A stretch of 64,000 nucleotides of DNA from a virus (Duplodnaviria > Caudoviricetes), in IMG/VR virus record IMGVR_UViG_3300028048_000055, positions 101,062 to 165,061 of that record; one strand, 5' to 3'. This document shows, piece after piece, positions 26,239-48,791 of this stretch; the first letter of the stretch is position 1; each line of letters opens with the position of its first letter. The position numbers and the translations under genes are program-made. The notes under the pieces are model-generated. The model ran no database searches. It was not told the DNA's origin and saw nothing but the letters and a program-made list of their open reading frames with translations.

Positions 26239-27306
26239 ATGAAATACTTTTTTGGCCTTGCTGCTGATCCGTTAACCATTGGTCATATTGCTATTATTAA
26301 GACAATTCATAAGCAACTTAAGAATAATGATGAACTTTATATTGCTATTTCTAATAATGATGAAAAGCAATATCATGCTACACTTGATGAACGTTTTTCT
26401 ATTGTCCATGATGCGATTATGGACAAGTTCAAGAAGAATCCGCCGATTCTCGTGAAGCAAGACAAGCGAACTCTTGCATTCCTCACTGAAAATTTTGCAG
26501 ATCAGGAAAAGGAAATTGTCATTTGTGTTGGTGAAGATGAATGGAAGTCTTTGCTTGAGGGTCGATGGGTAAATTATGACCTCATTCTTAAGCGATATCA
26601 GTTCCTTGTCGTTGGTCGTCAGAATACTGAAATCAAGACTTGTGGCTATCCTGTTACCGTCGTGAACATTCAGGATTGTACTGATGTTTCTTCCTCTGCA
26701 GTAAGAGATATTCTTTACAGAAATCCGAACTGTCATTATTGTGATGTAGAAAAGCATATTACGCATCAAACTTTCCGTTCTATTAAGGAAAATCGTCTTT
26801 ATTTTCAAAATGATGAACAATATGCTGAAGAAGAAGCAGAATTTCTTAGAAGTTATGCGATTGCTAAGAAAAATAATGGATGGGGTGAACCATCTGTAAC
26901 TGCTGATACTATTGCATATAATGGTGATAAAATTCTTCTTATTCGTCGTTTAAAACCGCCATTTAAAAATCATTGGTGTTTATGCGGTGGATTTATGGAT
27001 TTAACGGATGAAGATTTAAGATATACTGCATCTCGAGAATTAGAAGAAGAAACTAATATAAAAATTGATCCACTACGATTTAGGCAAGTAAAGACATATA
27101 GTCATAAATTTGATCCTAGAATGCGTATTGTAGATACTGCTTTCGAAGTTAGAGTTTCTAAAAAAGAAATGAAATCTATGAAAGCAGGTGATGATGCACG
27201 AGATGCTGCATGGTTCGATTTAGATAATTTGCCTTTATTAGGTTTTCATCATAAAATGATTATTGAAGATTGGCAAAAGAAACGTAATAACGAATCTTAT
27301 CTTTAA
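26239..27306 (+). CDS. nadD: bifunctional nicotinate/nicotinamide mononucleotide adenylyltransferase (NadD/NadM-like) - Nudix hydrolase
   Basis: DPLTIGH (HIGH-like), VGED, VSSSAVR; C-terminal Nudix box GGFMD...ASRELEEETNI and AGDDA. Confidence 0.8.
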   Translation: MKYFFGLAADPLTIGHIAIIKTIHKQLKNNDELYIAISNNDEKQYHATLDERFSIVHDAIMDKFKKNPPILVKQDKRTLAFLTENFADQEKEIVICVGEDEWKSLLEGRWVNYDLILKRYQFLVVGRQNTEIKTCGYPVTVVNIQDCTDVSSSAVRDILYRNPNCHYCDVEKHITHQTFRSIKENRLYFQNDEQYAEEEAEFLRSYAIAKKNNGWGEPSVTADTIAYNGDKILLIRRLKPPFKNHWCLCGGFMDLTDEDLRYTASRELEEETNIKIDPLRFRQVKTYSHKFDPRMRIVDTAFEVRVSKKEMKSMKAGDDARDAAWFDLDNLPLLGFHHKMIIEDWQKKRNNESYL

Positions 27307-27310
27307 AATT

Positions 27311-27419
27311 TATGAAGGACAGGTATATATCCCCATTATACTTGTGGATATTCACACTATCCACTAACTTCATATAAATATATTAGAAGGTGTGAACTTC
27401 TTATTTTTATGGGGTATTT
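27311..27419 (+). promoter_or_regulatory. structured leader (three-way junction, complementary loops) with late promoter 27373-27380
   Basis: Stems and loop complementarity read directly from the sequence; see findings. Confidence 0.6.
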
Positions 27420-28388
27420 ATGAAGACTAGGCAATGTCTTAAGTGTAACTGTATAATATCAGTTAGAAGTTTTTTAAAACATATATTAAATAAACATAAT
27501 CTTTCTGAAAAAGAATATTATGATTTATATCTTAAACAGCCTGATGAAGGTTTATGTAAAAACTGCGGTAAACAAACTAGATTTTATTCAATAACTAGAG
27601 GTTATTGTTCAACATGCTCATTAAATTGTGGTGCATCACTAGGGCAAAAGAAAAGATATGAAAAACCAGAAGAACATTTAAAAAGTTCAATTATTACTAA
27701 GAAACAAATGGCAAATTCACAAGCTAGGATAATTCTTAGTAAAAAAGCAAAAGAACGGTTTTCAGACCCAGCAGAACGTGAAAGAATTAGTAATGCAGTA
27801 AAAAATTCAGAAATATTTAAAAATAAAATACATTCTGAAGAATATTCTATAAATATGCATAATTTATTAATTGAGCGTTATTTGCATCCAGAAAATAGAT
27901 TAAAAATGAGTGAATCTTGTAAAAATTCACCAAAATTTAAAAATGGTGCAAGACAAACAAAAGAATTTCGTGAACGTCATAGTGAAATAATGCATGAACG
28001 GTTAAAAAATGGAAAACTTATGGTTAAATATGAGTATAATAATGAAACATTTATGTCATTGCCCGAATTTGCATTTTATATATGGCTTAAACAGCATAAG
28101 GTTGAATTTGAATATCAATGTGAACCATTATTTTATGAAAAGAATGGTGTGATTAAACGATATATACCAGATTTTAAAGTAAAAGGACGATATGTTGAAA
28201 TTAAGAGTCCATTTTTAATTAAAGATAATCATTTGTGGGATCCGTTTGAAAAAAGATTTAATATTGAAAAAGAACAATGCATGATTAAAAATAATGTATA
28301 TGTTATGACAGAAGATAAGTATAATATATTCGTTAATTGGTTTAAAAAACATTATGATAATGAATTTATTTTAAATCACAGAAAATAA
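27420..28388 (+). CDS. free-standing endonuclease: N-terminal zinc fingers, helical repeats, C-terminal PD-(D/E)xK domain
   Basis: CLKC..HILNKH, CKNCG..CSLNC; YIPDFKVKGRYVEIKS. Confidence 0.75.
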   Translation: MKTRQCLKCNCIISVRSFLKHILNKHNLSEKEYYDLYLKQPDEGLCKNCGKQTRFYSITRGYCSTCSLNCGASLGQKKRYEKPEEHLKSSIITKKQMANSQARIILSKKAKERFSDPAERERISNAVKNSEIFKNKIHSEEYSINMHNLLIERYLHPENRLKMSESCKNSPKFKNGARQTKEFRERHSEIMHERLKNGKLMVKYEYNNETFMSLPEFAFYIWLKQHKVEFEYQCEPLFYEKNGVIKRYIPDFKVKGRYVEIKSPFLIKDNHLWDPFEKRFNIEKEQCMIKNNVYVMTEDKYNIFVNWFKKHYDNEFILNHRK

Positions 28389-28409
28389 AATTCTGAATTT
28401 TTCTAACTT

Positions 28410-28435
28410 AGACCGTAGAAAATACGGTCTTTTTT
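28410..28435 (+). terminator. intrinsic terminator
   Basis: agaccgta-gaaaa-tacggtct followed by T-tract. Confidence 0.8.
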
Positions 28436-28471
28436 ATTATAAATATAATAAAACTAACGTTAGAGGAATTT

Positions 28472-29899
28472 ATGAACGAACAAAAACTATTTGAAATGGC
28501 TAAAGCTGCTCAAGAACGTATGCTTGACAGACTTCCGACAAATAAGAAATATGTATTCTTGCTTGGTCGATTCTTTGAACTTAAAGGTGATCATAATACA
28601 AAGAATGCATTGAAAAAGTATCTTGGTGATAGATTAACTGAAGAAGAATTCAACTGGGATAATATTGTATCTGTCGTTGCCGGTGGCGATGAAACTGATA
28701 TTACAGCTATTAATCATGGCGCTCATACAGATAAAATGGCTGAATTGTTCCATGCGAAGTTCGATACACTTTATAATAACATGAAGAATTCCTTGGCTCG
28801 TTCTAAGGATGATATCGATACTAACTATGTCGATAAGGTTCTTGATTTCTATTCTAAGGTCTATAACCACGATGATACTCCTGAAAATCTCTTTAATCAG
28901 CTTAATATGCAGCCTGTCATTGACTGGATTAAGGCTAATGAAGGTGAAGCTGCGGAACGTTTTGGACGTCGTTGGCCTAAGATTCAGAGACTCCTTGCTC
29001 AATGGCTTGATGATAACTATGAAGGTTCTATCAACCAGACTATTGCAGCATTCTGGGATTGGTGGCGCACAGTTCCTCGTGAAGACCGTGAAACTGCTAA
29101 ACCTCCTGTAGAATTAGCTCAGAAGCTTGCTAAGATTTTCTGCCGTGAAGATTCTCGAGAAATCCTTGGTAACTATCATAACTTTGTATTGAAGAAGACT
29201 CTCTTGACCTTGACTTCTGATGGTAATGTAGTTCCTAATGGTCTTAAGGCTGCTCTTGGTAATGCAGTTCGTAACGGTGCTGAATTTGGTCGTATGACTG
29301 ATTTCTGTGAAAACTTGGTTAATACTTGGTTTAATACCTTAAATCCAACTGAAGACCAGATTGAAGAAATGCGTAACCGTCCAGATGACGATAACGGCGA
29401 AATTAATATTAATAACTATGCTGATCGTATTGCAGAAGAAATACCTAATGATGCGGCAGACATGATTCTTGCAGCTGTTAATTATGAAGATAATAATCAT
29501 TTGCAAACTCTTCAAGATGCACTTAAAGAATTTGCTGATAATGATATGGTTGACATTAATATGGTTGGTCATGTCGATAAAAATATTGTAAGAGAAGCTT
29601 TTGCATATTATCGTCAACTTGGTAGAACAAAGAGAGTAGGCCGTACTTCAGTATTTAGTGAAGAAACATTAAACTCTATTCAAACATTCTATAATGAATT
29701 CAAGAACTTATTTAAGATTGGTTTAAAACTTCCTGCTATTAAATCTCTCTTAGCTGGTTATGCCGATGTTAGACTTGATGCAATAAATAGACATGATAAT
29801 GATTACTGGAATAATAGACAATTTGAAGACGTTCCTGAAGAATATGAACTTGAAGAAGCTCTCAGAGTTCTTCACAAGCACGGTTTGATGATTGCTTAA
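28472..29899 (+). CDS. late hypothetical protein (putative internal head protein)
   Basis: TATAAATA 28438-28445; SD GAGG; C-terminal LEEALRVLHKHGL motif. Confidence 0.65.
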   Translation: MNEQKLFEMAKAAQERMLDRLPTNKKYVFLLGRFFELKGDHNTKNALKKYLGDRLTEEEFNWDNIVSVVAGGDETDITAINHGAHTDKMAELFHAKFDTLYNNMKNSLARSKDDIDTNYVDKVLDFYSKVYNHDDTPENLFNQLNMQPVIDWIKANEGEAAERFGRRWPKIQRLLAQWLDDNYEGSINQTIAAFWDWWRTVPREDRETAKPPVELAQKLAKIFCREDSREILGNYHNFVLKKTLLTLTSDGNVVPNGLKAALGNAVRNGAEFGRMTDFCENLVNTWFNTLNPTEDQIEEMRNRPDDDNGEININNYADRIAEEIPNDAADMILAAVNYEDNNHLQTLQDALKEFADNDMVDINMVGHVDKNIVREAFAYYRQLGRTKRVGRTSVFSEETLNSIQTFYNEFKNLFKIGLKLPAIKSLLAGYADVRLDAINRHDNDYWNNRQFEDVPEEYELEEALRVLHKHGLMIA

Positions 29900-29904
29900 T
29901 AAAA

Positions 29905-29975
29905 TAAAAGAGGATTTTTAAAATCCTCTTTTTAATTATATAAAAAATAAAGGCGATTTTGAATCGCCTTATTTT
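29905..29975. terminator. two tandem hairpin terminators between convergent genes
   Basis: aaaagaggattt/aaatcctctttt and aaggcgatt/aatcgcctt. Confidence 0.7.
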
Positions 29976-29977
29976 TA

Positions 29978-31717
29978 TTAGATTTCTTCCCAGATTTCTA
30001 TGAAGCTACCACCTTCATTCGGTCTACGTTCATTGAAATCACCTGGCTTATAGTCATATACTATCGGATTATCCGGATCCTCAGGTTCATTCAACTTCTT
30101 CAAAGCTTCTTCCTGAGTAGGAGCTGTAACAACAACGTTATCAGTTATATTAGCTTGAACGTTACCATCTTCTCCTACTGGGTGATAGTATACTCTCCAT
30201 TGCTTTGCTCTAGGCATACGATGAATAGGTCCGTTAACTCTACGTGGCTCTCTATTTCTTACAGCCGGCTGAGCAGGAGCTTCTTCAGGTTCTTCATCTG
30301 CAGCAGGTTCATTAGCCGGAGCTTCTTCACGAGCTTGTTCTTCACCAGCGGCAGGAACATCAGCAAACAATTCCTGATACTGTGCCGGAAGCGGCCCAGG
30401 TTTTGTATTATCCATTAAACCATGATTTTGTTTAACTGGAACTTCTATTTCTGCTGGTGCTTGTGGATTAACATCAACAAATGTAAAGACATTTTCAAAC
30501 TTAGATTCAATCTGATTTGCTACCCATCTGGAAAGTTCGTCATTTAAATTGTTCGGATCGCAAATAAAAGTAATTTCAATATTGGCATTACCATTATCTT
30601 CAATAAATACTGGTTTAGATAACTTATTACCGGCAGCATCATATTCATCAATTTCATTAACTAATGAATCAAATGCATTTTTGATATCTTCAGTTTCTGC
30701 ACCGCCTTCAGTATCAATAATAACTTGAATTGTTCTTGTATTAATCTGAACATTTACTTCAGCAGGTGCCTGATGTGCAGGAGCTTCTTGTCTAGGAGCC
30801 GGTGCTTCTTCAGCAGGTTCTTCATGTCTTGGTGCGGCAGGAGCTGCATGAGCTGCAGGAGCATTACCAACACGGCCTCCATGTCTATTCGGGTTATCAC
30901 CACCTCTACCAGTTGGCTGCGGAGGAACTGCACCATCAATTTCACCAGTTTCAGGATCGACTTCAACTGCATCCCAACCATTTTCAGTGCGTCTAGCATT
31001 AAGGGTATTAATAATTCCCATAAGTTTTTGCTTACCGCGAGCAGGTGCATCAGGTATAAATGATGCAAAGCCATAAATAAACTTATCAATCTTGTCTTGT
31101 GTACGTAAAGCATTATTTGTTTTTGCGGAAGCATAACAGTTTTGGAATGCTTTAAGTCTTGCTAATGCTGCAGCATCCATTCCACGGAATTCATTTGCTT
31201 CATTAAGCATATAACCATGTCTACCGAGAACTTCTACCGCTTCTCTGATATCTTCATCAGCCGGGAATGAACCATCTTCTATATCATCATATACATCAGT
31301 TTCATCTTCTGCCGGAATACGGTCATATTCATCTGGATCTTCCATTCCATTAAGCTTACCTAGCTCATCATCTTCTGGGAAATCAGAATAATCTTCATTA
31401 TCCTCAGTTTCTTCATCATCACCGATGAAATCATTTTCATTATCGATGGTTTGAGATTCTTCGTAAATATCGTCTATAAGCTGTTCTACGGCTTGAGTCG
31501 GTGTAAAACCATCATTATAATATGAATCGATTATTTGTGCATACCATTCATCTTGTAGCATTTCATCTATAGACTGATAGTTCTCATCATCAGAATACTT
31601 TTCAGCCCACAAATCACTAAGTTTGGCAATAAAGTCATCATAAGAACCTATTGCTTGTTCTCTAAGCGCATACAATCCATGCTGCTTTATTATTGATTTA
31701 GCTTCATTAAGTGTCAT
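29978..31717 (-). CDS. acidic Pro/Ala/Glu-rich late protein (putative internal head protein)
   Basis: TATAAATA at 31741-31748 (-); two EAxxxLxxHG motifs. Confidence 0.7.
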   Translation of the reverse strand: MTLNEAKSIIKQHGLYALREQAIGSYDDFIAKLSDLWAEKYSDDENYQSIDEMLQDEWYAQIIDSYYNDGFTPTQAVEQLIDDIYEESQTIDNENDFIGDDEETEDNEDYSDFPEDDELGKLNGMEDPDEYDRIPAEDETDVYDDIEDGSFPADEDIREAVEVLGRHGYMLNEANEFRGMDAAALARLKAFQNCYASAKTNNALRTQDKIDKFIYGFASFIPDAPARGKQKLMGIINTLNARRTENGWDAVEVDPETGEIDGAVPPQPTGRGGDNPNRHGGRVGNAPAAHAAPAAPRHEEPAEEAPAPRQEAPAHQAPAEVNVQINTRTIQVIIDTEGGAETEDIKNAFDSLVNEIDEYDAAGNKLSKPVFIEDNGNANIEITFICDPNNLNDELSRWVANQIESKFENVFTFVDVNPQAPAEIEVPVKQNHGLMDNTKPGPLPAQYQELFADVPAAGEEQAREEAPANEPAADEEPEEAPAQPAVRNREPRRVNGPIHRMPRAKQWRVYYHPVGEDGNVQANITDNVVVTAPTQEEALKKLNEPEDPDNPIVYDYKPGDFNERRPNEGGSFIEIWEEI

Positions 31718-31760
31718 AAATCCTCGAAATTACTTTATATTATTTATAAGCAAAGATAAG

Positions 31761-31790
31761 AAAAATACCTTGTATTACAAGGTATTTTAT
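31761..31790 (-). terminator. intrinsic terminator
   Basis: aaaataccttgta/tacaaggtatttt. Confidence 0.7.
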
Positions 31791-31807
31791 ATAATTCTGA
31801 ATTTCTT

Positions 31808-32473
31808 TTACTTTAATTTATTAACCAAATCTCTGATATTTCCACCGTTTCTAAGGTAGTCAGCAACATTGGTAATACCAGCACGACGAGCTACATCAGT
31901 TGTGCGTTTTGGCTGGCCTTGACGACGTTTTAAGGGGTCTCTTTCACCAATGGCAGCACGATTTACACCTGCAGACAAATCTCTAGCTCTAGCATTGCTA
32001 ACTTCATACTTATCGTAATTAGCTTTTAACCAAGTAATAAGCTGATCCAGACCACGAGTAAAAGTATCTTTTGTCGTATAGAATGTATCTGCATGAAGAA
32101 TAATAGTCTTCTTTGTTCCATCATCTAATGTCTTAATAAAGACTTTTGCATTACTATTATCACAAACAGACAATGTGCCATCATTATTAATCTTAATTTC
32201 AAACTGATATGCGCCTTTACCACCCTTACGAGTCAAATGAATCTTATTTGCACTTCTAGAACCGGTAGGAGATGCTATATAAATGTCACCCATATCAGTT
32301 CTAATTCTATTACAAATCCAGTTTGTCATTGTCTGGTTATATGCTTCATCAGCCTTTTCATTAATAATAAAATCAATAAGACTATGTTTTTTAATTTTTT
32401 TATATCTTTGGCATTCTTTTTCACCCTGAAGGTCAAAATCTTCATTCATTAAAAATAAATCGTAGTCTGTCAT
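31808..32473 (-). CDS. hypothetical late protein
   Basis: Start revised to MTDYDLF (SD GAGGA); CATAAATA variant upstream. Confidence 0.6.
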   Translation of the reverse strand: MTDYDLFLMNEDFDLQGEKECQRYKKIKKHSLIDFIINEKADEAYNQTMTNWICNRIRTDMGDIYIASPTGSRSANKIHLTRKGGKGAYQFEIKINNDGTLSVCDNSNAKVFIKTLDDGTKKTIILHADTFYTTKDTFTRGLDQLITWLKANYDKYEVSNARARDLSAGVNRAAIGERDPLKRRQGQPKRTTDVARRAGITNVADYLRNGGNIRDLVNKLK

Positions 32474-32537
32474 AAAATCCTCATTTTTATATTTATGAAG
32501 TTTTAGAGTTATAAATAATACAAATATAGGAGTAATT

Positions 32538-34133: not shown

Positions 34134-34160
34134 TATAAAATTACTCCTATTATTTAAAGG

Positions 34161-34189
34161 TTGACGAAAGTCAACCTTTTTATTATATT
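34161..34189 (+). promoter_or_regulatory. early promoter TTGACG-N17-TATATT embedded in a terminator hairpin
   Basis: aaaggttgac-gaaa-gtcaacctttt. Confidence 0.7.
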
Positions 34190-34196
34190 TGTAATA

Positions 34197-35033
34197 ATGA
34201 TTTACGAAAATATGCAATGTGTTAAACCGCCAAGGTATGTTTTAATTACAGGCTTCATGGGGAGTGGTAAATCTACTGTTTCTGAACTTTTACGTGCAAA
34301 AACTTTTAAAGTTATCGATTCTGACAGTTTTGCAAAGAACCTTTATAAAACTGACGATACTTTAAAGAAGTTAGTTATCTCAAAGTTTGGAATTGAAGCT
34401 TCGTCTAATTATGAAGGTCCGGATAAACCGTTTGACCTTGATTTTGAATTTGCAAAGAAAGAATTTTTTAAAGCAGAAAATGATGAAAAACGTAGAGACC
34501 TAGAATCCTATATTTGTGGTTATCTTTCTGTCAATGTGCAATTTAATAGAGAACTTTGGGGCTATCCAGTCGTATTTATCGAAGCCGCATTAACTGAAGC
34601 GATTCCGACTTTAGTTGAATTACTTAAGATTAAGACTGTCATCGATGTATCTATTGATGACCATTTGAGAGCTAGTCGATTAGCTCAACGAGGAATTGAT
34701 ACAAAAACTCTTAATGAACGTATGCGTCTTCAAAAGTATGTCGATTTCGACGAAACTGTTACTGTATATCCGATTACAAATAATGGAACTATTGTTGATT
34801 TATGGCATCAAGTAGATGATATGCTTAAAAATGGTTTCATGAATTCGCAGGAAAAGTATCAACATTTTAAGACATATCTTGATAATGCACCTGAATATTG
34901 TAGAACTAACACTTGGTGTTATTTGTATTATAATAACAAGGGTTGTTCGAATTGTCCATTCCCTTGTGACAATAGAAATACAGAATTTGATGAAATGAAA
35001 GAAAAATATTTAAATAGGAAATATAATGGCTAG
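34197..35033 (+). CDS. coaE: dephospho-CoA kinase-like P-loop kinase with C-terminal Cys cluster
   Basis: ITGFMGSGKSTVS, VIDSD, RLAQRG, RMRLQ, ITNNG; start revised. Confidence 0.75.
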   Translation: MIYENMQCVKPPRYVLITGFMGSGKSTVSELLRAKTFKVIDSDSFAKNLYKTDDTLKKLVISKFGIEASSNYEGPDKPFDLDFEFAKKEFFKAENDEKRRDLESYICGYLSVNVQFNRELWGYPVVFIEAALTEAIPTLVELLKIKTVIDVSIDDHLRASRLAQRGIDTKTLNERMRLQKYVDFDETVTVYPITNNGTIVDLWHQVDDMLKNGFMNSQEKYQHFKTYLDNAPEYCRTNTWCYLYYNNKGCSNCPFPCDNRNTEFDEMKEKYLNRKYNG

Positions 35034-36375
35034 AAAAGAAACTACAAAAGATGGACTTATTAACGGTTATATGCATGCACTCGATTATGGTAAGACAGAG
35101 CGAAGAATGGTTGAACTTGCTGAAGCACAAGCACTTCAAGCAGGATTTGTAAAATATTCCGCTGATAAGCCGCTTAATCCTGGTGCAAAGTATTATTTTA
35201 TTAACCGTGGTAAAAACTTTGCAGCATTTGTTATCGGTAAAGAAAATCGTTCTGCACAATTACTTGGTGCACATATTGACTCACCGAGAATTGACGTAAA
35301 GCAACAGCCTCTTTATGAAAAGGATAAGGTTGCTTATTTTGATACTCAGTATTATGGCGGAATTAAGAAGTATCAGTGGACGACTATTCCTCTTGCAATG
35401 TATGGCGTAGTTTATCGAGCAGATGGAACTTATTATAATATCGCTATTGGTGATAATCCGAATGATCCAATTTTCTGTATTACTGATTTGCTTCCACATC
35501 TCGGTCGTTCTGATATGTCTAAAAAGACAGCAGAAGAATATATCAAGGGTGAAAATCTTGACATTATTGTCGGAACTACTGCAATCGAATGTTCTGATGA
35601 AGAAAAGGAAAAGATTAAGGAACCTGTAAAGGCGTTTATCCTTGATTATATTAAGGCAAAGTGGGGAATGGAAGAAGAAGATTTCTGTTCTGCCGAAATT
35701 GAAATTGTTCCGGCTGGTCAGGCAAGATATTGTGGTCTTGACCGTTCTTTGATTGCTGGCTATGGTCAGGATGATAGAGTTTGTGCTTATACTTCTCTTC
35801 GTGCGGTTCTTGACCTTCAGGATATTCCTGAACACACTGCGGGTGTAGTTCTCGTTGATAAGGAAGAAATTGGTTCTTGTTGTGCTACCGGTGCAAAGTC
35901 TCGTTGGTTTGAAGATGTTCTTCGTGCTATTCTCAACTTTGATCGTTGTAATGAACTTCAATTTGCAACTTGCCTCTATAATACACGCATGTTGTCTTCT
36001 GATGTAACTGCAGCATTTGATCCGCTTTATGCAGATGCATATGACAAGAAGTCTTCTGCTAAGCTTGGTAAGGGTATTATGTTCTCCAAGTATAATGGTG
36101 GTCGTGGTAAGTCTGGCGGTGCTGATGCAAATCCGGAATTTATCGCATATGTTCGTGGTATCATGAAGGAAAATAACTGTAACTATCAGTTTGACTCTAT
36201 GGGTAAGGTTGATGTCGGCGGTGGCGGAACAATTGCTTCTATGATTTGTAGCTTAAACATTAATGTGCTTGATGCTGGTGTTCCTATCCTTAACATGCAT
36301 TCTCCGATGGAACTTGCTCATGTTGATGATATCTATTCTGCATATAAGGCATATTCTGCATTTATCAGGGCATAA
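35026..36375 (+). CDS. M18 family aminopeptidase
   Basis: AHIDSPR, YYGGIKKYQW, GQDDRVC, DKEEIGS, SSDV, MHSPME. Confidence 0.9.
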   Translation: MARKETTKDGLINGYMHALDYGKTERRMVELAEAQALQAGFVKYSADKPLNPGAKYYFINRGKNFAAFVIGKENRSAQLLGAHIDSPRIDVKQQPLYEKDKVAYFDTQYYGGIKKYQWTTIPLAMYGVVYRADGTYYNIAIGDNPNDPIFCITDLLPHLGRSDMSKKTAEEYIKGENLDIIVGTTAIECSDEEKEKIKEPVKAFILDYIKAKWGMEEEDFCSAEIEIVPAGQARYCGLDRSLIAGYGQDDRVCAYTSLRAVLDLQDIPEHTAGVVLVDKEEIGSCCATGAKSRWFEDVLRAILNFDRCNELQFATCLYNTRMLSSDVTAAFDPLYADAYDKKSSAKLGKGIMFSKYNGGRGKSGGADANPEFIAYVRGIMKENNCNYQFDSMGKVDVGGGGTIASMICSLNINVLDAGVPILNMHSPMELAHVDDIYSAYKAYSAFIRA

Positions 36376-36806: not shown

Positions 36807-37799
36807 ATGACTATTGAAGAATTTAAATTAGAACAAGAAAATCTTATTAAGAAACCTTCACTTGCTGTTTATCAAAATGGTAATCACTATGTAGCGATTT
36901 TTGATGACGGTACAAAGATTAAGGAAACTATCGATCCTACTGCTGACCATTTTACTTATGAATTCGCAGAAAATAGCGATATTAAGATTACAGACTATTG
37001 CGATGGTGGTTGTATTTATTGTCATGAAAATTCTACTGTTAAGGGAATTCATGGTGACTTGAAGAAAATTGAACCCATGCTTGATACTCTTCATGCCGGA
37101 ACTGAAATGGCTGTCGGTGGTGGAAATGCTCTTGCTCATCCTGACCTTATCTGGTTCCTCGAGAAGCTGAAGTCTAAAGGAGTTCTTGCTAATATTACTA
37201 TTAACCAACGACACTTGAAGCCATATAAGGATTTGATTTGTAAACTTGTTGCTGAACATCTAGTTTATGGTATCGGTATTTCGCTGACGAATTCAAGTGA
37301 TGAAGATGACTTTAAGTTTATCGATACTTTAGGCGATAATGTTGTTATTCATACTATCGCTGGTATCTTGACTGAAAAGGATATTCAATGTCTGAAGCAC
37401 AGAAAAGTTTTGATTCTCGGTTATAAGGACCTTCGTCGTGGACATGCTCTTCTTGAAAAACAGTCTGATGAAATCAAGAAGAATATCGAATGGCTTAAGG
37501 AATTCCTTCCGATTATGAGACATCTTTGCAAGGTTATTTCTTTTGACTGCCTCGGTATTGAACAGCTTGATCCTAAGACTATTTTCCATATGTCTGATGA
37601 AACGTATAATAGTCTGTTTCAAGGTGCTGATACTGATGTAATGGATGCTGACGGAAATATTACCTGTTCTACATTCTATATCGATGTTCCGACTATGACA
37701 GTTGCTAGAATGAGTACTGCTGCACTTGACCAAAGATTCAAGTTTGAAGGAACTGAAGATGTCAAGGACTTGTTTAAAACTTCAACAAAGGGTTGGTAA
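36807..37799 (+). CDS. radical SAM enzyme
   Basis: DIKITDYCDGGCIYCHENS (CxxxCxxC), AVGGGN, NITIN. Confidence 0.9.
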   Translation: MTIEEFKLEQENLIKKPSLAVYQNGNHYVAIFDDGTKIKETIDPTADHFTYEFAENSDIKITDYCDGGCIYCHENSTVKGIHGDLKKIEPMLDTLHAGTEMAVGGGNALAHPDLIWFLEKLKSKGVLANITINQRHLKPYKDLICKLVAEHLVYGIGISLTNSSDEDDFKFIDTLGDNVVIHTIAGILTEKDIQCLKHRKVLILGYKDLRRGHALLEKQSDEIKKNIEWLKEFLPIMRHLCKVISFDCLGIEQLDPKTIFHMSDETYNSLFQGADTDVMDADGNITCSTFYIDVPTMTVARMSTAALDQRFKFEGTEDVKDLFKTSTKGW

Positions 37800-39516: not shown

Positions 39517-39610
39517 AACAATTAGGTTATTTTTGTATTGGATATATGCTTACAGCATTAATCTATAAAATTATCGATAAATTTTGTAATAAAGATTAAA
39601 ACGGATATAT

Positions 39611-39814: not shown

Positions 39815-39871
39815 TAATTTTACGACTTTCAAAAAATTATTTTCATATATAGAATAGAAAGGTTAAGAACA

Positions 39872-39946: not shown

Positions 39947-39975
39947 ACTAAGTTTTACAAATTTTAACGATTTAG

Positions 39976-40009
39976 GACCGCTTACAAAAGCGGTCTTTTT
40001 TTCTATATT
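39976..40009 (+). terminator. intrinsic terminator overlapping promoter CTTACA-N17-TATATT
   Basis: gaccgctt-acaa-aagcggtc-T7. Confidence 0.75.
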
Positions 40010-40036
40010 TAACAGTGAAAATTAAATGGTTCAGTA

Positions 40037-40213
40037 ATGAGAAAAAAGAAAACATTAAAAATTCAAACCTTTAGTAATCCTGAAAATATAGGATTGTATC
40101 TGGAATCAAATCAGATTAATCGTGACGACGTTTTGACTGTGACTGAAAGTGTAAAAGAAATAGAATCAACGCACGCAAAAATTCAATAATTTACTTTATT
40201 CTACTGGGCTTAA
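40037..40213 (+). pseudogene. small LFYW-type protein with in-frame TAA at 40187-40189
   Basis: ...HAKIQ*FTLFYWA*; similar ORF 4805..4948 ends YVLFYWEK. Confidence 0.45.
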
Positions 40214-40237
40214 AAAATTTAAAAAGGAAAAATAAAA

Positions 40238-40828
40238 ATGAACAAGAAACTCTTAATCCTCATCGACTGTCAGAATGACTTTATTACTGGCACCCTTGCA
40301 AATCCTCGCGCTGAAGCAAAGATTGCAAACATTGTAAAGAAAGTAAAGGAACACGACGGTATCATTATTGCAACCCATGATACTCACTTTACCAAGCTTC
40401 AGGTTGAATCGGCTTGGCCTCCTGCTGAAGGAAAGGCATATGAAGATACTTTGGAAGGTCAGATTCTTAAGACTGTCCACTGTATCAAGCTTACTGAAGG
40501 TTGGGAAATTCAAAAGGATATTCTCGCAGCTTGTCATGAAAAGAATGGCCCCAATGGTCCGACTAAGTTCCACTGTATTGACAAGTATACGTTCGGCTGG
40601 GATGGCTGGAAGGAATACCTCAAGGCCTTCGATTTTGACGAAGTTGAACTTTGTGGTTTTGTCGCTGGTATTTGCGTAGATTCCAACGCAACCATTCTTC
40701 GTGCACTTTTCCCGAATATGAAGATTACTGTTGATGCTGCTTGCACTGCTGGTTTCGGACCTGACGATGAAAAGGCTGCTTATACCTGCATGAAGATGAA
40801 AGAAATTGATGTTATTAACGAGGACTAA
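40238..40828 (+). CDS. pncA: nicotinamidase (isochorismatase/cysteine hydrolase family)
   Basis: LIDCQNDF, THDTH, HC..W, DK, GICV (D-K-C triad). Confidence 0.85.
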   Translation: MNKKLLILIDCQNDFITGTLANPRAEAKIANIVKKVKEHDGIIIATHDTHFTKLQVESAWPPAEGKAYEDTLEGQILKTVHCIKLTEGWEIQKDILAACHEKNGPNGPTKFHCIDKYTFGWDGWKEYLKAFDFDEVELCGFVAGICVDSNATILRALFPNMKITVDAACTAGFGPDDEKAAYTCMKMKEIDVINED

Positions 40829-40829
40829 T

Positions 40830-41153
40830 ATGACCGTTGAAATTAAGAAATATAAAAAGAAACCAGTTCAGGTCGAAGCAATTCAGATTCCAAACATCGA
40901 TGATGAAGAAGATGCAGCTGAAATCATCGAATGGGGTCAGGGAAAACTCAGATATGATGATGAAACATATCCACGTAGCGGACCGGTGATTGGGCTTGAA
41001 ACTTCAACTGGTCATCATTATGCCTGCCCTGGAGACTGGATTATTAAAGGTATTGATGGAACATTCTATGCAACTACCGATGATACTTTCCAGAAACTCT
41101 ATGAAGAAGCAGATACTGATGTAACGACCAATAATGGTGTAATTACATGGTAA
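40830..41153 (+). CDS. phage protein (KKPVxVEA...PGDWIIKG family)
   Basis: KYKKKPVQVEAIQ, PGDWIIKG, FQKLYE; start revised. Confidence 0.7.
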   Translation: MTVEIKKYKKKPVQVEAIQIPNIDDEEDAAEIIEWGQGKLRYDDETYPRSGPVIGLETSTGHHYACPGDWIIKGIDGTFYATTDDTFQKLYEEADTDVTTNNGVITW

Positions 41154-41365
41154 ATAAAGACACAGATTATTTTAACCATATAATTAATTACTGGGCAGAT
41201 AAAGAAGCAACCAGAAAATTATATGGTGAAGATTGTGACCGTTGGGAAGATTACCGTCCATGGAAACACAATGATTACAAATCTGAAATAACCAACAAGA
41301 TAGCAAAAAGCTATTATAAAAACAAAAATTTAACAAAAACAAAACAAACAAACGAGGATAAAAAT

Positions 41366-42007: not shown

Positions 42008-42019
42008 GGAGGTTAACCA

Positions 42020-42901: not shown

Positions 42902-42912
42902 TTCAAAAGGGG

Positions 42913-42941
42913 TTGAAAAACCCCTTATTTTTTTCTATATT
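42913..42941 (+). promoter_or_regulatory. promoter TTGAAA-N17-TATATT embedded in a terminator hairpin
   Basis: aaggggtt-gaaa-aacccctt. Confidence 0.65.
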
Positions 42942-42983
42942 TGTTTGGAATGATAACGATAACCGATAAGAAAAGGAGGATTT

Positions 42984-44142
42984 ATGAGCATAGTTAACGC
43001 ACGAATTATCGTTGGCGCTAACTATGGTTGAATAAACCATAGGTGATGAAGGTAAAGGCACAGCGGTAGCTTTTTATACAAAAAATTCTATCGGTAAAGT
43101 TTTAAATGTATTGACAAATGGTGGTGCACAGAGAGGTCATTCTGTTATCTCTGATGTAGGTGATTTTACATTCAAGCATTTTGGATCTGGAACTTGTTAT
43201 AATGCAGACAGTTATTATTGTCAGTATTTTATTCTTAATCCGATGCAGTTTGTTAAAGAATATAGACAGTTAAGAGATAAGATTCCACTCTTTAACAATA
43301 TCAAGTTTTATAGACATGTAAACTGTAAATGGTCTACTCCCTTTGATCAAATGTTTAATCTTGCAATCGAAGCTAGTAGAGGTGCAGAAAGACATGGTTC
43401 TTGTGGAATGGGTATTTGGGAAACTGTATTAAGATATAATAAAACTATTACTTATACTTTAAGCGATTTCATGAATCTTATAAGAGAAGATAAAGTAAAG
43501 TATCTTCAAAATGTGAAGAATTATTTTAATATCCGTATGAAAGAACTTAATGTAAAACTTCCTAAGGAACTTATTGAACCTTGGAATAGTGATTTTCTTA
43601 TTGAACATTTTATTCAAGACTGTAAGTTCATTGCTTCTACTGTAATACCTGTTTCTAATATTACTGATATCAGTAATAACTATCAGGAAATTATTTTCGA
43701 AAATGGTCAGGGATTACTTTTAACATCCAGTATATTTGATGACCATACGACACCGAGTAATACTGGTTGTCATGATGCAATGGATATTATTATAAATGAA
43801 CTTCATATTCCTTGTGAAAATGTTACAGTTCATTATATTACGAGACCGTATCTTACTAGACATGGTAATGGTTCTCTTATTGGTGAAACTGATAAGAATC
43901 ATATTGCTGGTTCCGTTCCTGAAGACAGGACAAATCATTACAATGAAACTCAAGGTCGATTTAGATATGCTGGATTAGATATTCATGATTTACTTAATAG
44001 GGTTAAGAATGATTATCAAGCTATGCATGCTAGTGGATTAAAAATTGAAGTTACACATTGTGATGAAATGGATAGAGTAAATGAATTCGAAAAAGTGTTT
44101 GGCCAATCTGTCATCCATACATTCGAATCTCCTAAAATTTAA
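42984..44142 (+). CDS. purA: adenylosuccinate synthetase-like protein with a 16-nt coding gap (43029-43044)
   Basis: SD AAGGAGG; IIVGANYG|DEGKG, NGGAQRGH, HGSCGMG, FENGQG, YLTRHGNG; gap splits the P-loop. Confidence 0.75.
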
Positions 44143-44172
44143 AAAGGATTGGTTTTATCCAATCCTTTTTTA
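44142..44172. terminator. bidirectional terminator
   Basis: aaaaaggattgg/ccaatccttttt. Confidence 0.75.
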
Positions 44173-44188
44173 TTTTCATATTAATAAA

Positions 44189-45040
44189 TTACCAATCATA
44201 TTCACGAGTATCTTCTGGTTCAGGAATTCGTTTCTGACCATAAGACATTTCAACAACTTCAAAATATTCAGCGTTTTCTATACCTTCTGGATTTTTATTA
44301 TAAGTATCAGATATATCTTTTTTCTTTCCATTAACAACGGCAAATATTAAAGTTTCGCCATCATCCCATGGACATCCACAGTCATCTATATCAGTTGCAA
44401 TGTCAGAAGAAATATTTTCGCAGTCATATACTTCGTCATCTGTTGGAAGATGATCAAATATAAAAGCAATAGAGCATTCATATTTAATATATTCTCCATC
44501 GTCAGTAATATCATAAGTAACTTCGACCTTTTTATCGGGATAATTTGTTTTTAAATATTTTTCAACCTCGGCAACATAATCTGCACAATCGCTTTCTTCA
44601 CTACTAGTATCATAGCCATCTTCTGCATAGTAATCCGGGTCATAGAATTCTGGACGTGTTGACGGGTCATAGAAATCACCCTTTCTTTCTACGATATAGC
44701 CTTGTTTTTTAAGGTATTGTTTTGCTTCATTAAGATTCATACCTACTCCTCTATTAAATTCTGTATTTTCGTTGATTTCTCGGAAGAACTTTTCGATATC
44801 TTGCTTAGTATAAAGTTTCTTGTATTTTCTTGTTGATAACATTGTTACCATCAACATATCAAAATAATTCTGAACTTTTGCAATACGAACCTTTTCTGGT
44901 GAATACAAGATCATATCTGTTTTAAGGACATATTTTTTTCGTAATGCAGTCTGTCTGAATATATGAAGCAAATCTGGTTTTCTTTCACCAAATGTAACTA
45001 CTCCATTTTTAAACTGTGGGTTTGAGAAATCGTAAGTCAT
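44189..45040 (-). CDS. late acidic protein; internal start at 44740 (MNLNEAKQYLKKQGYIVE)
   Basis: TATAAATA 45045-45052 (-); internal SD GAGGAG before ATG 44740. Confidence 0.6.
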   Translation of the reverse strand: MTYDFSNPQFKNGVVTFGERKPDLLHIFRQTALRKKYVLKTDMILYSPEKVRIAKVQNYFDMLMVTMLSTRKYKKLYTKQDIEKFFREINENTEFNRGVGMNLNEAKQYLKKQGYIVERKGDFYDPSTRPEFYDPDYYAEDGYDTSSEESDCADYVAEVEKYLKTNYPDKKVEVTYDITDDGEYIKYECSIAFIFDHLPTDDEVYDCENISSDIATDIDDCGCPWDDGETLIFAVVNGKKKDISDTYNKNPEGIENAEYFEVVEMSYGQKRIPEPEDTREYDW

Positions 45041-45061
45041 ATATTATTTATATTAAAACCA

Positions 45062-45090
45062 TTTACAAATACATTTCATTTTACTATATT
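45062..45090 (+). promoter_or_regulatory. early promoter TTTACA-N17-TATATT
   Basis: Consensus match. Confidence 0.7.
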
Positions 45091-45119
45091 ATAATCAAAT
45101 TTAAAAAGGATTATAAATT

Positions 45120-45521
45120 ATGATTTCTAAAGAAGATCTTGAAAAATTCTGTGATATTTCTGAAAAAATCGAACAAGAATTGAGACGTATTGTCCCTATC
45201 CTTGAAGATGTTTACGGCAAAAACGCTCTTAAGCTTTCAGAAAAGAAAGAAGTTCGTTTTGTCGATATTTCTATAAATTTAAAAGGCTATATTGATTGCA
45301 GGATATATAGTAATTATATATCAGATAATCTTAATATCCCTTATCGAATTGAACTTAAGTATTTAACTATGCCAGATGATAAATTTGCTGCATACATGAA
45401 AAAAGAAAAGGAATCACTTGATAAGGAACGTGCTGAAACAGCAAAAAAAGAAGCTGAAGAACGTGCATTGTATGTAAAACTTCGTGAAAAGTATGGTGAT
45501 TTGGAAAATTTTCAATTTTAA
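45120..45521 (+). CDS. hypothetical protein
   Basis: SD AAGGA. Confidence 0.6.
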   Translation: MISKEDLEKFCDISEKIEQELRRIVPILEDVYGKNALKLSEKKEVRFVDISINLKGYIDCRIYSNYISDNLNIPYRIELKYLTMPDDKFAAYMKKEKESLDKERAETAKKEAEERALYVKLREKYGDLENFQF

Positions 45522-45554
45522 AATTTAAAAGGATATAAAATACAATTTTCATTC

Positions 45555-45675
45555 TATAAATAAAATATATAGAGTGAAGACTATATAAAGACATATAAGA
45601 GTTTTTATAAAACCCGTATGGTTTCGTTCTTCACATTAGATTCCATATGGGTTTTTCTTTTTGGAGTGAAGACCA
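45555..45675 (+). promoter_or_regulatory. late promoter plus paired-hairpin leader RNA with complementary loops
   Basis: See findings. Confidence 0.65.
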
Positions 45676-46464
45676 ATGCAATATTACATTTACAAAATTA
45701 CAAATAAGCTTAATGGTAAAATTTATATAGGTCAACATAAAGTTCCTTTAATTAAAGAAAACTTTAGAAGATATATGGGTAAAGGTATTGCTATTCAAGA
45801 AGCAATTAAAAAATATGGAAAAGAAAATTTTGATAAAGAAATTATAGAATATATTGACGATGATGAAAAACATGAATATGTTTCTGAACGTGAAAAATAT
45901 TGGATAGCATATTATAACTGTATGACACCAAATGGTTATAATATTAGTCCAGGCGGCGAGGGCGGATGCACAAGCGAAAGTGGTAAAAAAGGAGCAGAAA
46001 CAAGAAAACGTAATGGAACAAATAAACGAACACCAGAACAGTGCATAAAAATATCTAATGCAGTAAAAGGTAAACCAAAATCAGAATTACATAAACAACA
46101 TTTATCTGAACATCATAGATTAAGAACATTACATAAAGTTCAATTCAAATCTGACGGTCATATCGAGGAAACATTCGATTCTGTCAAAACATTGGCAATT
46201 AAATATAATATAAGAACTGAAATGATATTACGTAGAGCATCAGAAGCTGATAAATTTTGTAATGGTATAAAAATAATAGATATAATATTACCAGAAGTAG
46301 TTAAACGCCATAAGATGGTTAAACAAGGTTTATTTTTAGATCCAGTAAAGCAAGATATTGTTCCATATTATGTTTTAAGAAATAGAAAATGTGGTAATGC
46401 TAAAAATAATGAAATATATAGAAATTTAGATTTATTTAAATGTTTTATTAAGTATAATGATTAA
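45676..46464 (+). CDS. GIY-YIG (Seg-like) homing endonuclease with NUMOD3-like repeats
   Basis: YIYKITNKLNGKIYIGQ, REKYWI, GYNISPGG, KSELHKQHLSE. Confidence 0.85.
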   Translation: MQYYIYKITNKLNGKIYIGQHKVPLIKENFRRYMGKGIAIQEAIKKYGKENFDKEIIEYIDDDEKHEYVSEREKYWIAYYNCMTPNGYNISPGGEGGCTSESGKKGAETRKRNGTNKRTPEQCIKISNAVKGKPKSELHKQHLSEHHRLRTLHKVQFKSDGHIEETFDSVKTLAIKYNIRTEMILRRASEADKFCNGIKIIDIILPEVVKRHKMVKQGLFLDPVKQDIVPYYVLRNRKCGNAKNNEIYRNLDLFKCFIKYND

Positions 46465-46474
46465 TATAAAGGGG

Positions 46475-46503
46475 TTTACAAAACTCCTTTTATTTTTTAT
46501 ATT
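46475..46503 (+). promoter_or_regulatory. promoter TTTACA-N17-TATATT within a hairpin
   Basis: aaaggggttt/aaactccttt. Confidence 0.65.
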
Positions 46504-46530
46504 TAATATAGTTTTTAAAAGGATATTAAA

Positions 46531-47805
46531 ATGGAACTTTCTCAAAAAGAAATTAATGAAATTAAAAATTATAAACCGCTTGATGAAGATAAGTATATTA
46601 TCAATTATCTCTCAGATCTGGACATTTATAAAATTTCAATGACTCAGTGCTTGCTTCATAAGCGACCGAATGAATGGGCTAAGTGGAAGTGGAAGCTTCG
46701 CTCTAAAGATATTCATCTTGGATATCTTGTTGATGCGGTAAATCGTGAAGTTGATCATCTTTGTACGCTTCGTTGGCAACCTTTTGAACTTGATGCTCTT
46801 TCCAAGATTTATTATATTAAGCCTGATTATGTCGATTGGCTTGAAGATTTCCGTCTTAAGAGAAAGTATATCAAGATTACTCGCCGTGGTGACGATCTTG
46901 AAATTGAAGCAGAAGGTCCGCAGCTCAAGGTCACATGGTTTGAAATTTATGTGATGGAAATTATTCAGGAACTTTATCTTCGTCAGTTTGAATTTGATTT
47001 TGAAAAGGCAAAGGCAAATCTTGCAGAAGCAGTTGATAAGTTTAATGCTGCAATTGATTCTGGCTTGAAGTTCGGTTTTGCTGATTTTGGTGCTCGCCGT
47101 AGACATTCTTTTGCATGGCAGGATTATGCAGTTGGTTACATGGCTAAGAACTGTAAGTGCTTTGTTGGTACCTCTAACCTTTATTTCGCCATTAAATACG
47201 GTATAAAGGCAATTGGAACGTTTGCACATGAAATGTATGCTTTGTTCCAGGGACTTGATGATGTACCTATTCGTCAGTCTCAGAAGGCAGTATTCGACGC
47301 ATGGACGCAGGAATATCGAGGCGATCTTGGTATTGCATTGTCTGATAACTTTGGATTTATTCCGTTCCTTCGCGACTTTGATAAGTTCTATGCAAAGCTG
47401 TTCGATGGTTGTAGACACGATTCCGGTGATCCGATTGTTTGGGGTGAAATGTTAATTGCACATTATAAGGCACTTGGCATCGACCCGACTACTAAGACTG
47501 GTTGTTGGTCTGATTCTCTCGATGTTGATAAGGCAATTAAGATTGCACAGCATTTCAATGGTCGTATTAAGGTCAGCTTCGGTATCGGTACTTATTTCAT
47601 GGCAAATCTTGTAACTCAGACTGCTGGTATTAAGCCGCTTTCCATGGTTATGAAAGTTGTCAAGGTTAATGGCAAGGACACGGTGAAACTCAGTGATTGT
47701 CCTGAGAAAAACATGTGCGAATCTCCTACTTATATAGACTATGTTAAGCAGGTATTCGATTATATTCCATTGGATGAATGGAAGGGCGGTCTTACCGTAA
47801 TTTAA
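46531..47805 (+). CDS. pncB: nicotinate phosphoribosyltransferase
   Basis: DLDIYK, DFGARRRHS, GTSN, GTFAHE, RHDSGDP, SDSL, FGIGT, KLSD. Confidence 0.92.
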   Translation: MELSQKEINEIKNYKPLDEDKYIINYLSDLDIYKISMTQCLLHKRPNEWAKWKWKLRSKDIHLGYLVDAVNREVDHLCTLRWQPFELDALSKIYYIKPDYVDWLEDFRLKRKYIKITRRGDDLEIEAEGPQLKVTWFEIYVMEIIQELYLRQFEFDFEKAKANLAEAVDKFNAAIDSGLKFGFADFGARRRHSFAWQDYAVGYMAKNCKCFVGTSNLYFAIKYGIKAIGTFAHEMYALFQGLDDVPIRQSQKAVFDAWTQEYRGDLGIALSDNFGFIPFLRDFDKFYAKLFDGCRHDSGDPIVWGEMLIAHYKALGIDPTTKTGCWSDSLDVDKAIKIAQHFNGRIKVSFGIGTYFMANLVTQTAGIKPLSMVMKVVKVNGKDTVKLSDCPEKNMCESPTYIDYVKQVFDYIPLDEWKGGLTVI

Positions 47806-47830
47806 ATAAATTAATATTTACAGAATTAAT

Positions 47831-47971
47831 ATGAAAAAGTTGATTAAAATTATTTGCGCAGTTCTCGGTATTTCTCTTGCGAGTGGGTTAGTCTATAGAG
47901 AACGAGAAACAATTATGGATCTACGAAAGAGACTCGTAGAGATGAGGCATTTCACAGTTAATAAGAAGTAA
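47831..47971 (+). CDS. small single-TM protein
   Basis: 46-aa ORF MKKLIKIICAVLGISLASGLVY... Confidence 0.4.
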   Translation: MKKLIKIICAVLGISLASGLVYRERETIMDLRKRLVEMRHFTVNKK

Positions 47972-48044
47972 ATATCATTTTACATTTCTACTGTGAAATG
48001 TTTTCTATATTTGTACTATAAAGTTTAAAATAAAAGGAAAATCT

Positions 48045-48791
48045 ATGAAAGACTTAACTCAAAATGTGATTAATTGGACCAAGGACTTTTTTAAGGCAGT
48101 AGGCAAGACTGATGCAGTTCTTGGTATTTCTGGCGGTAAAGATAGTTCAGTAGTGGCTGCAATTTGTGTTGCTGCTCTTGGTAAGGAACATGTCCATGGA
48201 ATTTTGCTTCCGTGCGGAATTCAGAAGGATATTTCTGATTCCTATAAACTTGTAGATCATCTTGGTATCGATTATGATGTTCAAGATATTGAAACTCTTG
48301 TAAAGGAATCTCTGGCTCTGGTTCCTGGTGCAGATAAATCTTATGATGCAAAGACCAATGTTCCAGCTCGTATTCGAATGAATCAAATTATGGTAGCAGC
48401 ACAAACAAATAACTGGTTAATGGCTAATACCGGAAATCGCAGCGAAAATATAATTTCATGGATGACGCTATTTGGTGACCATGCGGGTAGTTTCGCGCCG
48501 CTTGATATGTTGACTACCGAAGAAGTTATTGAAATCGGCGATGACCTTGGATTACCTTATGAACTTACGCATAAAGTTCCTATTGATGGGCTTCAACCTC
48601 TTTCTGATGAAGAAAAATTTGGTTTTAGCTATCATGAAATTAATGAACTTATTAGAAAAGGAATTCGCGGCGAACATTATGATAAAATTATGAAAATGTT
48701 TAACGCTGGTAAGTTTAAACTTGAAATGTTAAAATTTGCACATTTTGATCCGAAGCTTCCGGATTATTTCAGAGATAATTTTAATATTTAA
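48045..48791 (+). CDS. nadE: NH3-dependent NAD+ synthetase
   Basis: LGISGGKDS, NVPARIRM, TGNRSE, TLFGD, DEEKFGFSY. Confidence 0.92.
   Translation: MKDLTQNVINWTKDFFKAVGKTDAVLGISGGKDSSVVAAICVAALGKEHVHGILLPCGIQKDISDSYKLVDHLGIDYDVQDIETLVKESLALVPGADKSYDAKTNVPARIRMNQIMVAAQTNNWLMANTGNRSENIISWMTLFGDHAGSFAPLDMLTTEEVIEIGDDLGLPYELTHKVPIDGLQPLSDEEKFGFSYHEINELIRKGIRGEHYDKIMKMFNAGKFKLEMLKFAHFDPKLPDYFRDNFNI

Follow-up and report, generated by a model that had tools for sequence, protein, structure and literature searches.

A stretch of viral DNA of 64,000 nt (the window; bases 101062-165061 of the linear IMG/VR viral contig IMGVR_UViG_3300028048_000055, 165,061 bp) carries four intact genes with which the phage probably encodes its own deamidating NAD+ salvage route, i.e. 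a nicotinamidase (PncA) placed in front of the Preiss-Handler enzymes PncB, NadD and NadE. Depletion of NAD+ is a major bacterial antiphage strategy, and a phage that carries these enzymes might rebuild the cofactor from the products of its cleavage. The DNA has a GC content of ~32%. CheckV rates the contig as 40% complete, which makes it a fragment of a phage of ~400 kb. The genes of the region line up one by one with those of a complete relative of 424 kb (G006), and there is partial collinearity with a complete relative of 416 kb (G001). Two further near-complete relatives, G002 (216 kb, 99% complete) and G007 (411 kb), were included, so that the comparison covers four near-complete genomes; in addition, the fragment G003 stems from a relative with the same gene set.

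The four genes are the following:

26239-27306, + strand: NadD-type adenylyltransferase (residues ~1-190) in fusion with a Nudix domain (residues ~195-350) of the type that binds ADP-ribose, 355 aa; assigned from Pfam, profiles and fold
40238-40828, + strand: nicotinamidase (PncA) candidate, 196 aa; Pfam Isochorismatase, 52 bits
46531-47805, + strand: nicotinate phosphoribosyltransferase (PncB), 424 aa; NAPRTase_N and NAPRTase domains
48045-48791, + strand: NH3-dependent NAD+ synthetase (NadE) with a single synthetase domain, 248 aa; NAD_synthase domain

A preliminary description of this DNA had proposed that these open reading frames (ORFs) form a complete route from nicotinamide via nicotinate, nicotinate mononucleotide (NaMN) and nicotinate adenine dinucleotide (NaAD) to NAD+. 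All four ORFs are indeed intact at the coordinates given above, and family assignments and motifs place the four enzymes of that route together. PncA would hydrolyse nicotinamide to nicotinate, which PncB would combine with host-made phosphoribosyl pyrophosphate (PRPP) to give NaMN. The NadD-type domain would then adenylylate NaMN to NaAD, and the NH3-dependent NadE would amidate NaAD to NAD+. By analogy with NadM-Nudix enzymes and with the Nmnat of the NARP2 pathway of phage KVP40, the Nudix domain most likely cleaves ADP-ribose, yielding AMP and ribose-5-phosphate. As a whole, the gene set would keep NAD+ available in infection, notably when it is being broken down to nicotinamide and ADP-ribose.

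Assignment of the four genes

In the fusion protein, Pfam recognises a CTP_transf_like domain at residues 10-157 and a NUDIX domain at residues 220-333. Family profiles were built for the whole protein and for the adenylyltransferase domain alone. With these, structures of NadD and NaMN adenylyltransferase (NaMNAT) aligned across the whole adenylyltransferase domain (5LLT over residues 4-189, 2H29 over residues 4-184), the top match for the domain being the NaMNAT of P. falciparum (5LLT), which shares the T-x-A-H variant of the HxGH motif. The nucleotidyltransferase motifs (H/T)xGH and SxxxxR are present as T13-x-x-H16 and S151-x-x-x-x-R156. T13 and H16 (T-x-(A/G)-H), W110, S151 and R156 are invariant across 20 relatives, and S153 is conserved in at least 90% of the relatives. 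The Nudix box RE-x2-EE is intact as well, with R266, E267, E270 and E271 invariant in 20 relatives.

The AlphaFold2 (AF2) model of the fusion protein has a pLDDT of 90.7. Searched with Foldseek, its adenylyltransferase domain resembles bacterial NadD (TMt 0.65-0.75), while the whole two-domain protein matches NadM-Nudix bifunctional enzymes. By both sequence and fold, the nearest relatives of the Nudix domain are 2FML, 2QJO (with ADPRP bound), 2QJT and the NrtR structure 3GZ8 (with ADP-ribose), domains that bind or hydrolyse ADP-ribose. A NadM-type adenylyltransferase domain was considered and rejected: the NadM-Nudix structures 2QJO and 2QJT are matched by the profiles via the Nudix part only (residues 191-335), and the NadM-Nudix equivalog models NF003785-NF003791 reach 37-66 bits where the cut-offs lie at 347-449, aligning from ~residue 141 onward. 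Judged from profiles and model, the protein is thus a fusion of NadD and Nudix that is analogous to the known NadM-Nudix enzymes but does not belong to their family.

The fusion family comprises 726 detectable homologues, many of them from contigs of 200-386 kb. Among 185,579 species genomes, the family was found on only 7 contigs, all from metagenome-assembled genomes (MAGs) and of scattered taxonomy, and these most likely represent phage DNA misplaced in bins. In the phage collection that was searched, no record covers at least 80% of the fusion protein; likewise, neither megablast with the PncB-NadE DNA nor tblastn with a 987-aa structural protein gave a match in that collection.

The closest PDB sequence to the PncA candidate is the P. 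horikoshii nicotinamidase 1ILW. Across 22 relatives the catalytic triad is kept, D10 and K116 being invariant and C146 present in 21 of the 22; D10 and C146 correspond to D10 and C133 in the P. horikoshii enzyme. D48, H50 and H81, also invariant in the 22 relatives, are matched by the D-x-H and H-C motifs in 1ILW and presumably form the metal site, as in PncA structures. An Asp-His-His metal site marks nicotinamidases within the isochorismatase superfamily. The AF2 model has a pLDDT of 94.4, and its top Foldseek matches are mostly nicotinamidases (1ILW, 5ZN8, 2WTA, 3S2S, 3O93, 3V8E and 3PL1; TMt up to 0.81), which span P. horikoshii, B. subtilis, A. baumannii, streptococci, yeast, Leishmania, Drosophila and M. 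tuberculosis. From these motifs and the modelled fold, the product of 40238-40828 is very probably a divergent nicotinamidase.

The assignments of PncB and NadE are secure at the level of sequence families. PncB exceeds the curated cut-offs of NF003704 (446 bits, cut-off 379) and TIGR01514 (377 bits, cut-off 269.55), and aligns with P. aeruginosa PncB2 (1YIR) at 292 bits; the contig has no other gene of the NAPRTase family. It retains the GT-x-AHE motif (IGTFAHE, corresponding to LGTMAHE in 1YIR), whose histidine is the site of ATP-driven phosphorylation. NadE passes TIGR00552 with 147 bits (cut-off 63.65), and its SGGKDS PP-loop together with a length of 248 aa without a glutaminase domain identifies it as the NH3-dependent form. 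It belongs to the short NadE group, its best PDB matches being, in this order, 2E18 (101 bits), 3P52 and the Francisella enzyme 3FIU (75 bits). Between the two genes, at 47832-47972, there is a small ORF of ~46 codons whose product begins with a hydrophobic stretch.

Conserved linkage and exchange of alleles

All four genes occur in each of the four near-complete relatives, which answers the question of co-occurrence in related phages raised in the preliminary description. In G002 and G003 they are contiguous on one strand in the order adenylyltransferase-Nudix, PncB, PncA, NadE, with gaps of at most 50 nt and with the PncA stop overlapping the NadE start. In the 216-kb genome G002 they form a tight operon of 3.7 kb (L008:8820-12578). 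More broadly, 9 of the 21 viral contigs that bear the fusion have the complete set within ±10 kb, in several orders; the remainder consists largely of short fragments and of contigs on which the genes lie wider apart. The linkage is also found on MAG-binned contigs, one of which is 266 kb long.

Comparison with the two collinear relatives reveals mosaic identities. PncA and NadE of the window are 98% and 79% identical to their counterparts in G006, whereas PncB and the adenylyltransferase-Nudix protein reach 36% and 41%. With respect to G001, it is PncB (95%) and NadE (83%) that are close, PncA (58%) and the adenylyltransferase-Nudix protein (41%) being more distant. The set thus stays complete although single genes have been swapped for divergent alleles, which is good evidence that the four genes work together.

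Assessment of the pathway and alternative explanations

Several observations weigh against this reading. The NadD model TIGR00482 gives the fusion protein 55 bits over residues 5-188 and misses its cut-off of 112.45, and the PncA equivalog NF008623 is not reached either (33 bits, cut-off 174), the candidate being a divergent member. NadD reportedly reads the carboxylate of its substrate through backbone amides, and the preference of the adenylyltransferase domain for NaMN or nicotinamide mononucleotide (NMN) is therefore unreadable from sequence; the operon shared with PncB and NadE in relatives favours NaMN as substrate. In the window, the four genes are spread across 22.5 kb, with unrelated genes between them and with separate promoter-like sites. 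A Prs-like gene (Pribosyltran_N) was not found on the 165-kb contig (~40% of the genome) or in the four near-complete relatives, which extends to all of these genomes the earlier remark that the window lacks a PRPP synthetase; PRPP would thus have to be supplied by the host. Furthermore, three of the four near-complete relatives (G001, G006 and G007) carry the adenylation domain of an NAD-dependent DNA ligase, which makes the phage's own demand for NAD+ an equally simple rationale for the gene set. The domain was not found on the contig or in G002.

The ligase adenylation domain and PnuC-like loci of the relatives are located as follows:

G001:C1:405146-405673 and 410676-411329
G006:C1:291835-292515
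G007:C1:63746-64432

The PnuC-like nicotinamide riboside transporter occurs in G001. This group of phages thus uses up NAD+ and, in the case of G001, may also import a precursor. PnuC was not found on the contig or in G002, G006 and G007, and NadR was not searched for.

Some of these points bear on the identity of single enzymes. If the isochorismatase-family protein were another amidase or hydrolase, the phage route would start from nicotinate only and amount to a plain Preiss-Handler pathway. The equivalog score of merely 33 bits would allow for this, as would the presence of N-carbamoylsarcosine amidase (3EEF) and other isochorismatase-like hydrolases among the fold matches. We nonetheless regard it as quite improbable, because the Asp-Lys-Cys triad and the Asp-His-His metal site are preserved across the 22 relatives, the top fold matches are mostly nicotinamidases from archaea, bacteria, yeast, an insect and Leishmania, and linkage of the gene with PncB, NadE and NadD-Nudix is maintained. 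Still less credible is an adenylyltransferase of the CoaD type, i.e. a phosphopantetheine adenylyltransferase (PPAT), working with the CoaE-like kinase encoded at 34161-35033, 7 kb downstream of the fusion gene, which would leave the NAD route incomplete; this is the outcome that the preliminary description had named as contradicting its proposal. The N-terminal 60-70 residues are PPAT-like (FDPIT-x-GH, NN-x-x-K...ER) and match PPAT structures with up to 45.6 bits. These matches, however, are limited to the first ~65-85 residues, whereas those to NadD/NaMNAT cover residues 4-189, and the G-x-D...W segment and the length of the domain are NadD/NMNAT-like. Moreover, no PPAT appears among the Foldseek matches listed, all adenylyltransferase-only chains there being NadD, and in G002 and G003 the fusion gene stands in an operon with PncB, PncA and NadE and without CoaE. 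Domain coverage, fold and operon context together led us to reject the CoaD/PPAT identity in favour of a NadD-type domain. A third possibility concerns the order of the steps. In Francisella, a NadE homologue acts as NMN synthetase (NaMN to NMN) and is paired with an adenylyltransferase-Nudix fusion, as stated in PMC3376133 with reference to Sorci 2009. The same order here, with NadE making NMN and the adenylyltransferase-Nudix protein making NAD+ from it, would leave the net chemistry unchanged. The phage NadE falls into the short group with Francisella 3FIU as third-best PDB match, and the whole-protein fold matches include the Synechocystis and Francisella NadM-Nudix bifunctional enzymes. 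Conversely, the adenylyltransferase domain is of the NadD type, the NadM-Nudix structures being matched via the Nudix part only, and NadE matches the archaeal-type 2E18 best; the archaeal NadE that was assayed, from M. jannaschii, acted as an NAD synthetase but not as an NMN synthetase (PMC3376133). Judged from these sequence relationships, the Francisella-type order is less likely than the canonical one, and on the whole unlikely.

The remaining alternative concerns purpose and not chemistry. The four genes might serve as auxiliary metabolic genes, i.e. as a general booster that provides NAD+ for replication, for instance for a phage ligase, or that complements a salvage-deficient host. The ligase domain in G001, G006 and G007 fits this view. 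A booster role is proposed in PMC11662467, where phage Preiss-Handler sets are described as complementing hosts that have de novo synthesis only, and NARP2 of KVP40 raises NAD+ even without a defence system (bioRxiv 10.1101/2024.02.11.579819). The ligase and the complementation argument thus favour NAD+ supply, and we regard a booster role as quite possible, with the balance tilting slightly against it. Booster and counter-defence roles are not mutually exclusive. LigA releases NMN and AMP, not nicotinamide, and for this reason PncA and a Nudix domain of the ADP-ribose type fit the recycling of NADase products better; also, no ligase domain was found in G002, yet this genome retains the tight operon. 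Since PncA and Nudix would act on both products of NADases, the composition of the set favours recycling. Considering all this, we maintain the deamidating salvage route as the probable function of the four genes, and a role in counter-defence is plausible.

Homing endonucleases, promoter-like sites and neighbouring genes

Two homing endonuclease genes flank the PncB-NadE region:

45676-46464, + strand: GIY-YIG homing endonuclease directly 5' of PncB; Pfam GIY-YIG/SegE, phrog_314 (5e-44)
48937-50400, + strand: GIY-YIG/NUMOD homing endonuclease directly 3' of NadE; Pfam GIY-YIG, NUMOD1 and NUMOD3, phrog_314

The upstream endonuclease, the G001-type PncB allele and the 5' neighbour of the latter are all absent from the otherwise collinear G006, which carries the PncB allele of 36% identity. 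The endonuclease 3' of NadE is present in G001 (61% identity) and absent in G006. This pattern would fit an endonuclease-assisted exchange of alleles. The statement of the preliminary description that three of the four genes adjoin endonuclease genes holds for two only, PncB and NadE, each next to one of the two GIY-YIG genes; beside the fusion gene and PncA, no endonuclease was recognised.

Promoter-like sites were found as follows:

26188-26218, + strand: promoter-like site 5' of the adenylyltransferase-Nudix gene, TTTACA-17-TATATT, ending in TATATTTG; consensus match only
40003-40189, + strand: CTATATTTA motif (40003-40011) followed by a 50-codon ORF (40037-40189) before PncA; read from sequence
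46475-46505, + strand: promoter-like site 5' of PncB, TTTACA-17-TATATTTA; read from sequence
48005-48013, + strand: CTATATTTG motif 5' of NadE; motif match

A terminator-like hairpin (39974-39997) precedes the CTATATTTA motif. Hence, promoter-like sequences of the form TTTACA-17-TATATT(T) or CTATATTTR stand before all four transcription units. For the motif CTATATTTR, 11 occurrences compare with 3.9 expected, and it appears similar to the Bacteroidota -7 element TAnnTTTG. A generic sigma-70 scan of the DNA was not above chance (98 sites found, 87 expected). The three genes that had been placed behind early-type promoters (the fusion gene, PncA and PncB) are therefore preceded by promoter-like sites, as is NadE, and nothing in these sites indicates early timing.

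Between PncA and PncB, the window encodes a MazG-like pyrophosphohydrolase (40806-41153; phrog_419/4159) and an adenylosuccinate-synthetase-like protein (43111-44142; phrog_1211, '2-aminooxy adenylosuccinate synthetase'), the latter phrog being PurZ-like. The two genes hint at a pathway for 2-aminoadenine (Z-base) DNA. The P-loop kinase at 34161-35033 (290 aa) matches CoaE with 41 bits and has a counterpart of 36% identity in G006. Further genes encode an M16 (insulinase-like) peptidase (24958-26184), an M18 aminopeptidase (35026-36375) and a radical SAM protein (36807-37799); these three, unusual cargo for a phage, have conserved counterparts in G006 and also in G001, there at 40-67% identity. 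ARAGORN found no tRNA genes in the window.

Related gene sets in other phages

PncB and NadE also occur in the cultured jumbo phages Atu_ph07 (MF403008.1) and Phosso (PV764938.1) and in a 735-kb metagenomic phage (LR756501.1). In Phosso and LR756501 the two genes are neighbours, and Atu_ph07 has a separate ADP-ribose pyrophosphatase 3 kb from PncB. Atu_ph07 and Phosso are thus possible cultured systems for testing.

A different arrangement is seen in Phage Phass-1 (L055, OQ749652.1), a human gut phage of the code-15 clade, in which a five-gene operon (7998-12436) encodes a PncA-like isochorismatase, a phosphoribosyltransferase resembling Prs (321 aa), a member of the NAPRTase family (532 aa), a protein of 139 aa and an NAD synthase that is annotated as hypothetical. 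This operon looks like a NARP1-type pair bracketed by a nicotinamidase and NadE and may represent a deamidated NARP1.

Comparison with known systems

In its four reactions and enzyme families, the gene set is identical to the bacterial PncA-PncB-NadD-NadE salvage of E. coli and B. subtilis; it differs in being phage-borne, in the fusion of NadD to Nudix and in a short, NH3-dependent NadE. The fusion shares its two-domain architecture with the NadM-Nudix bifunctional enzymes, and the Nudix domain, including the intact Nudix box, and the linker that precedes it are homologous to theirs, whereas the N-terminal domain is of the NadD type.

The main text of PMC11662467 (Li et al., Microbiome 2024) reports 174 gut jumbo phages that encode complete salvage or Preiss-Handler routes, with pncB-nadD-nadE clusters in a clade whose predicted hosts are Bacteroidota ("NAD-jumbo phages", Kuafu; e.g. 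Kuafu_71), and its discussion mentions phage pncA. Both those phages and ours are large, gut-associated and read from sequence as having a NAD+ route by virtue of pncB, nadD and nadE. The NadD-Nudix fusion, a four-gene operon containing pncA, the mosaicism and the homing endonucleases are not described in that main text. To prior sequence reports, the present analysis adds the assignment of the fusion to the NadD type, the conserved linkage of the four genes, which form a tight operon in G002, the mosaic alleles accompanied by homing endonucleases and the finding that no phage Prs was detected.

Among the pathways directed against host defence, the preliminary description correctly characterised NARP1 (Adps/Namat) and NARP2 (Nampt/Nmnat) as proceeding through amidated intermediates; its count of the present route as the third of its kind is out of date, NARP3 (PnuC and NadR) having been published in August 2026 (PMC13464706). 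NARP1 and NARP3 likewise restore NAD+ after depletion by host defences, though by different chemistry. Compared with NARP1, no Prs/Adps-like gene and no second NAPRTase-family gene was found here on the contig; compared with NARP3, PnuC is missing from the contig and from three of the four near-complete relatives, NadR being outside the search. Closest in logic is NARP2, which rebuilds NAD+ from nicotinamide, PRPP and ATP, as the set described here would, and whose KVP40 Nmnat (NatV) also bears a Nudix domain. NARP2 requires two genes and amidated intermediates (nicotinamide to NMN to NAD+). In the present phage, PncA and PncB would replace Nampt, the adenylyltransferase is of the NadD type and NadE is needed in addition, so that the set could be regarded as, in effect, the deamidated counterpart of NARP2. 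In Vibrio phage KVP40, NARP2 (Nampt and Nmnat) defeats Thoeris and DSR2 (bioRxiv 10.1101/2024.02.11.579819) and has thus been demonstrated against defences, whereas the phage set described here is known from its genes; our literature search found no paper testing a phage nicotinamidase route against defences.

A wider proposal is that the cassette constitutes a phage counter-defence by NAD+ reconstitution of a fourth kind, a "deamidating NARP". PncA and the Nudix domain joined to NadD would consume the two products of defence NADases, nicotinamide and ADP-ribose, and PncB, NadD and NadE would restore NAD+. Strong selection would preserve the full set, homing endonucleases would move its alleles between huge phages of the gut, and the Phass-1 cluster would be a second, NARP1-like deamidating version. 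We put this forward tentatively and would rather doubt it in its full extent. The three phage counter-pathways proven so far all use amidated intermediates. If the deamidated route does rescue phages, huge phages of the gut would use the classical salvage chemistry of bacteria toward the same end, and the NadD-Nudix fusion would be a marker by which they could be recognised. In the 216-kb relative, the compact operon of 3.7 kb offers a ready-made natural construct for testing such a rescue.

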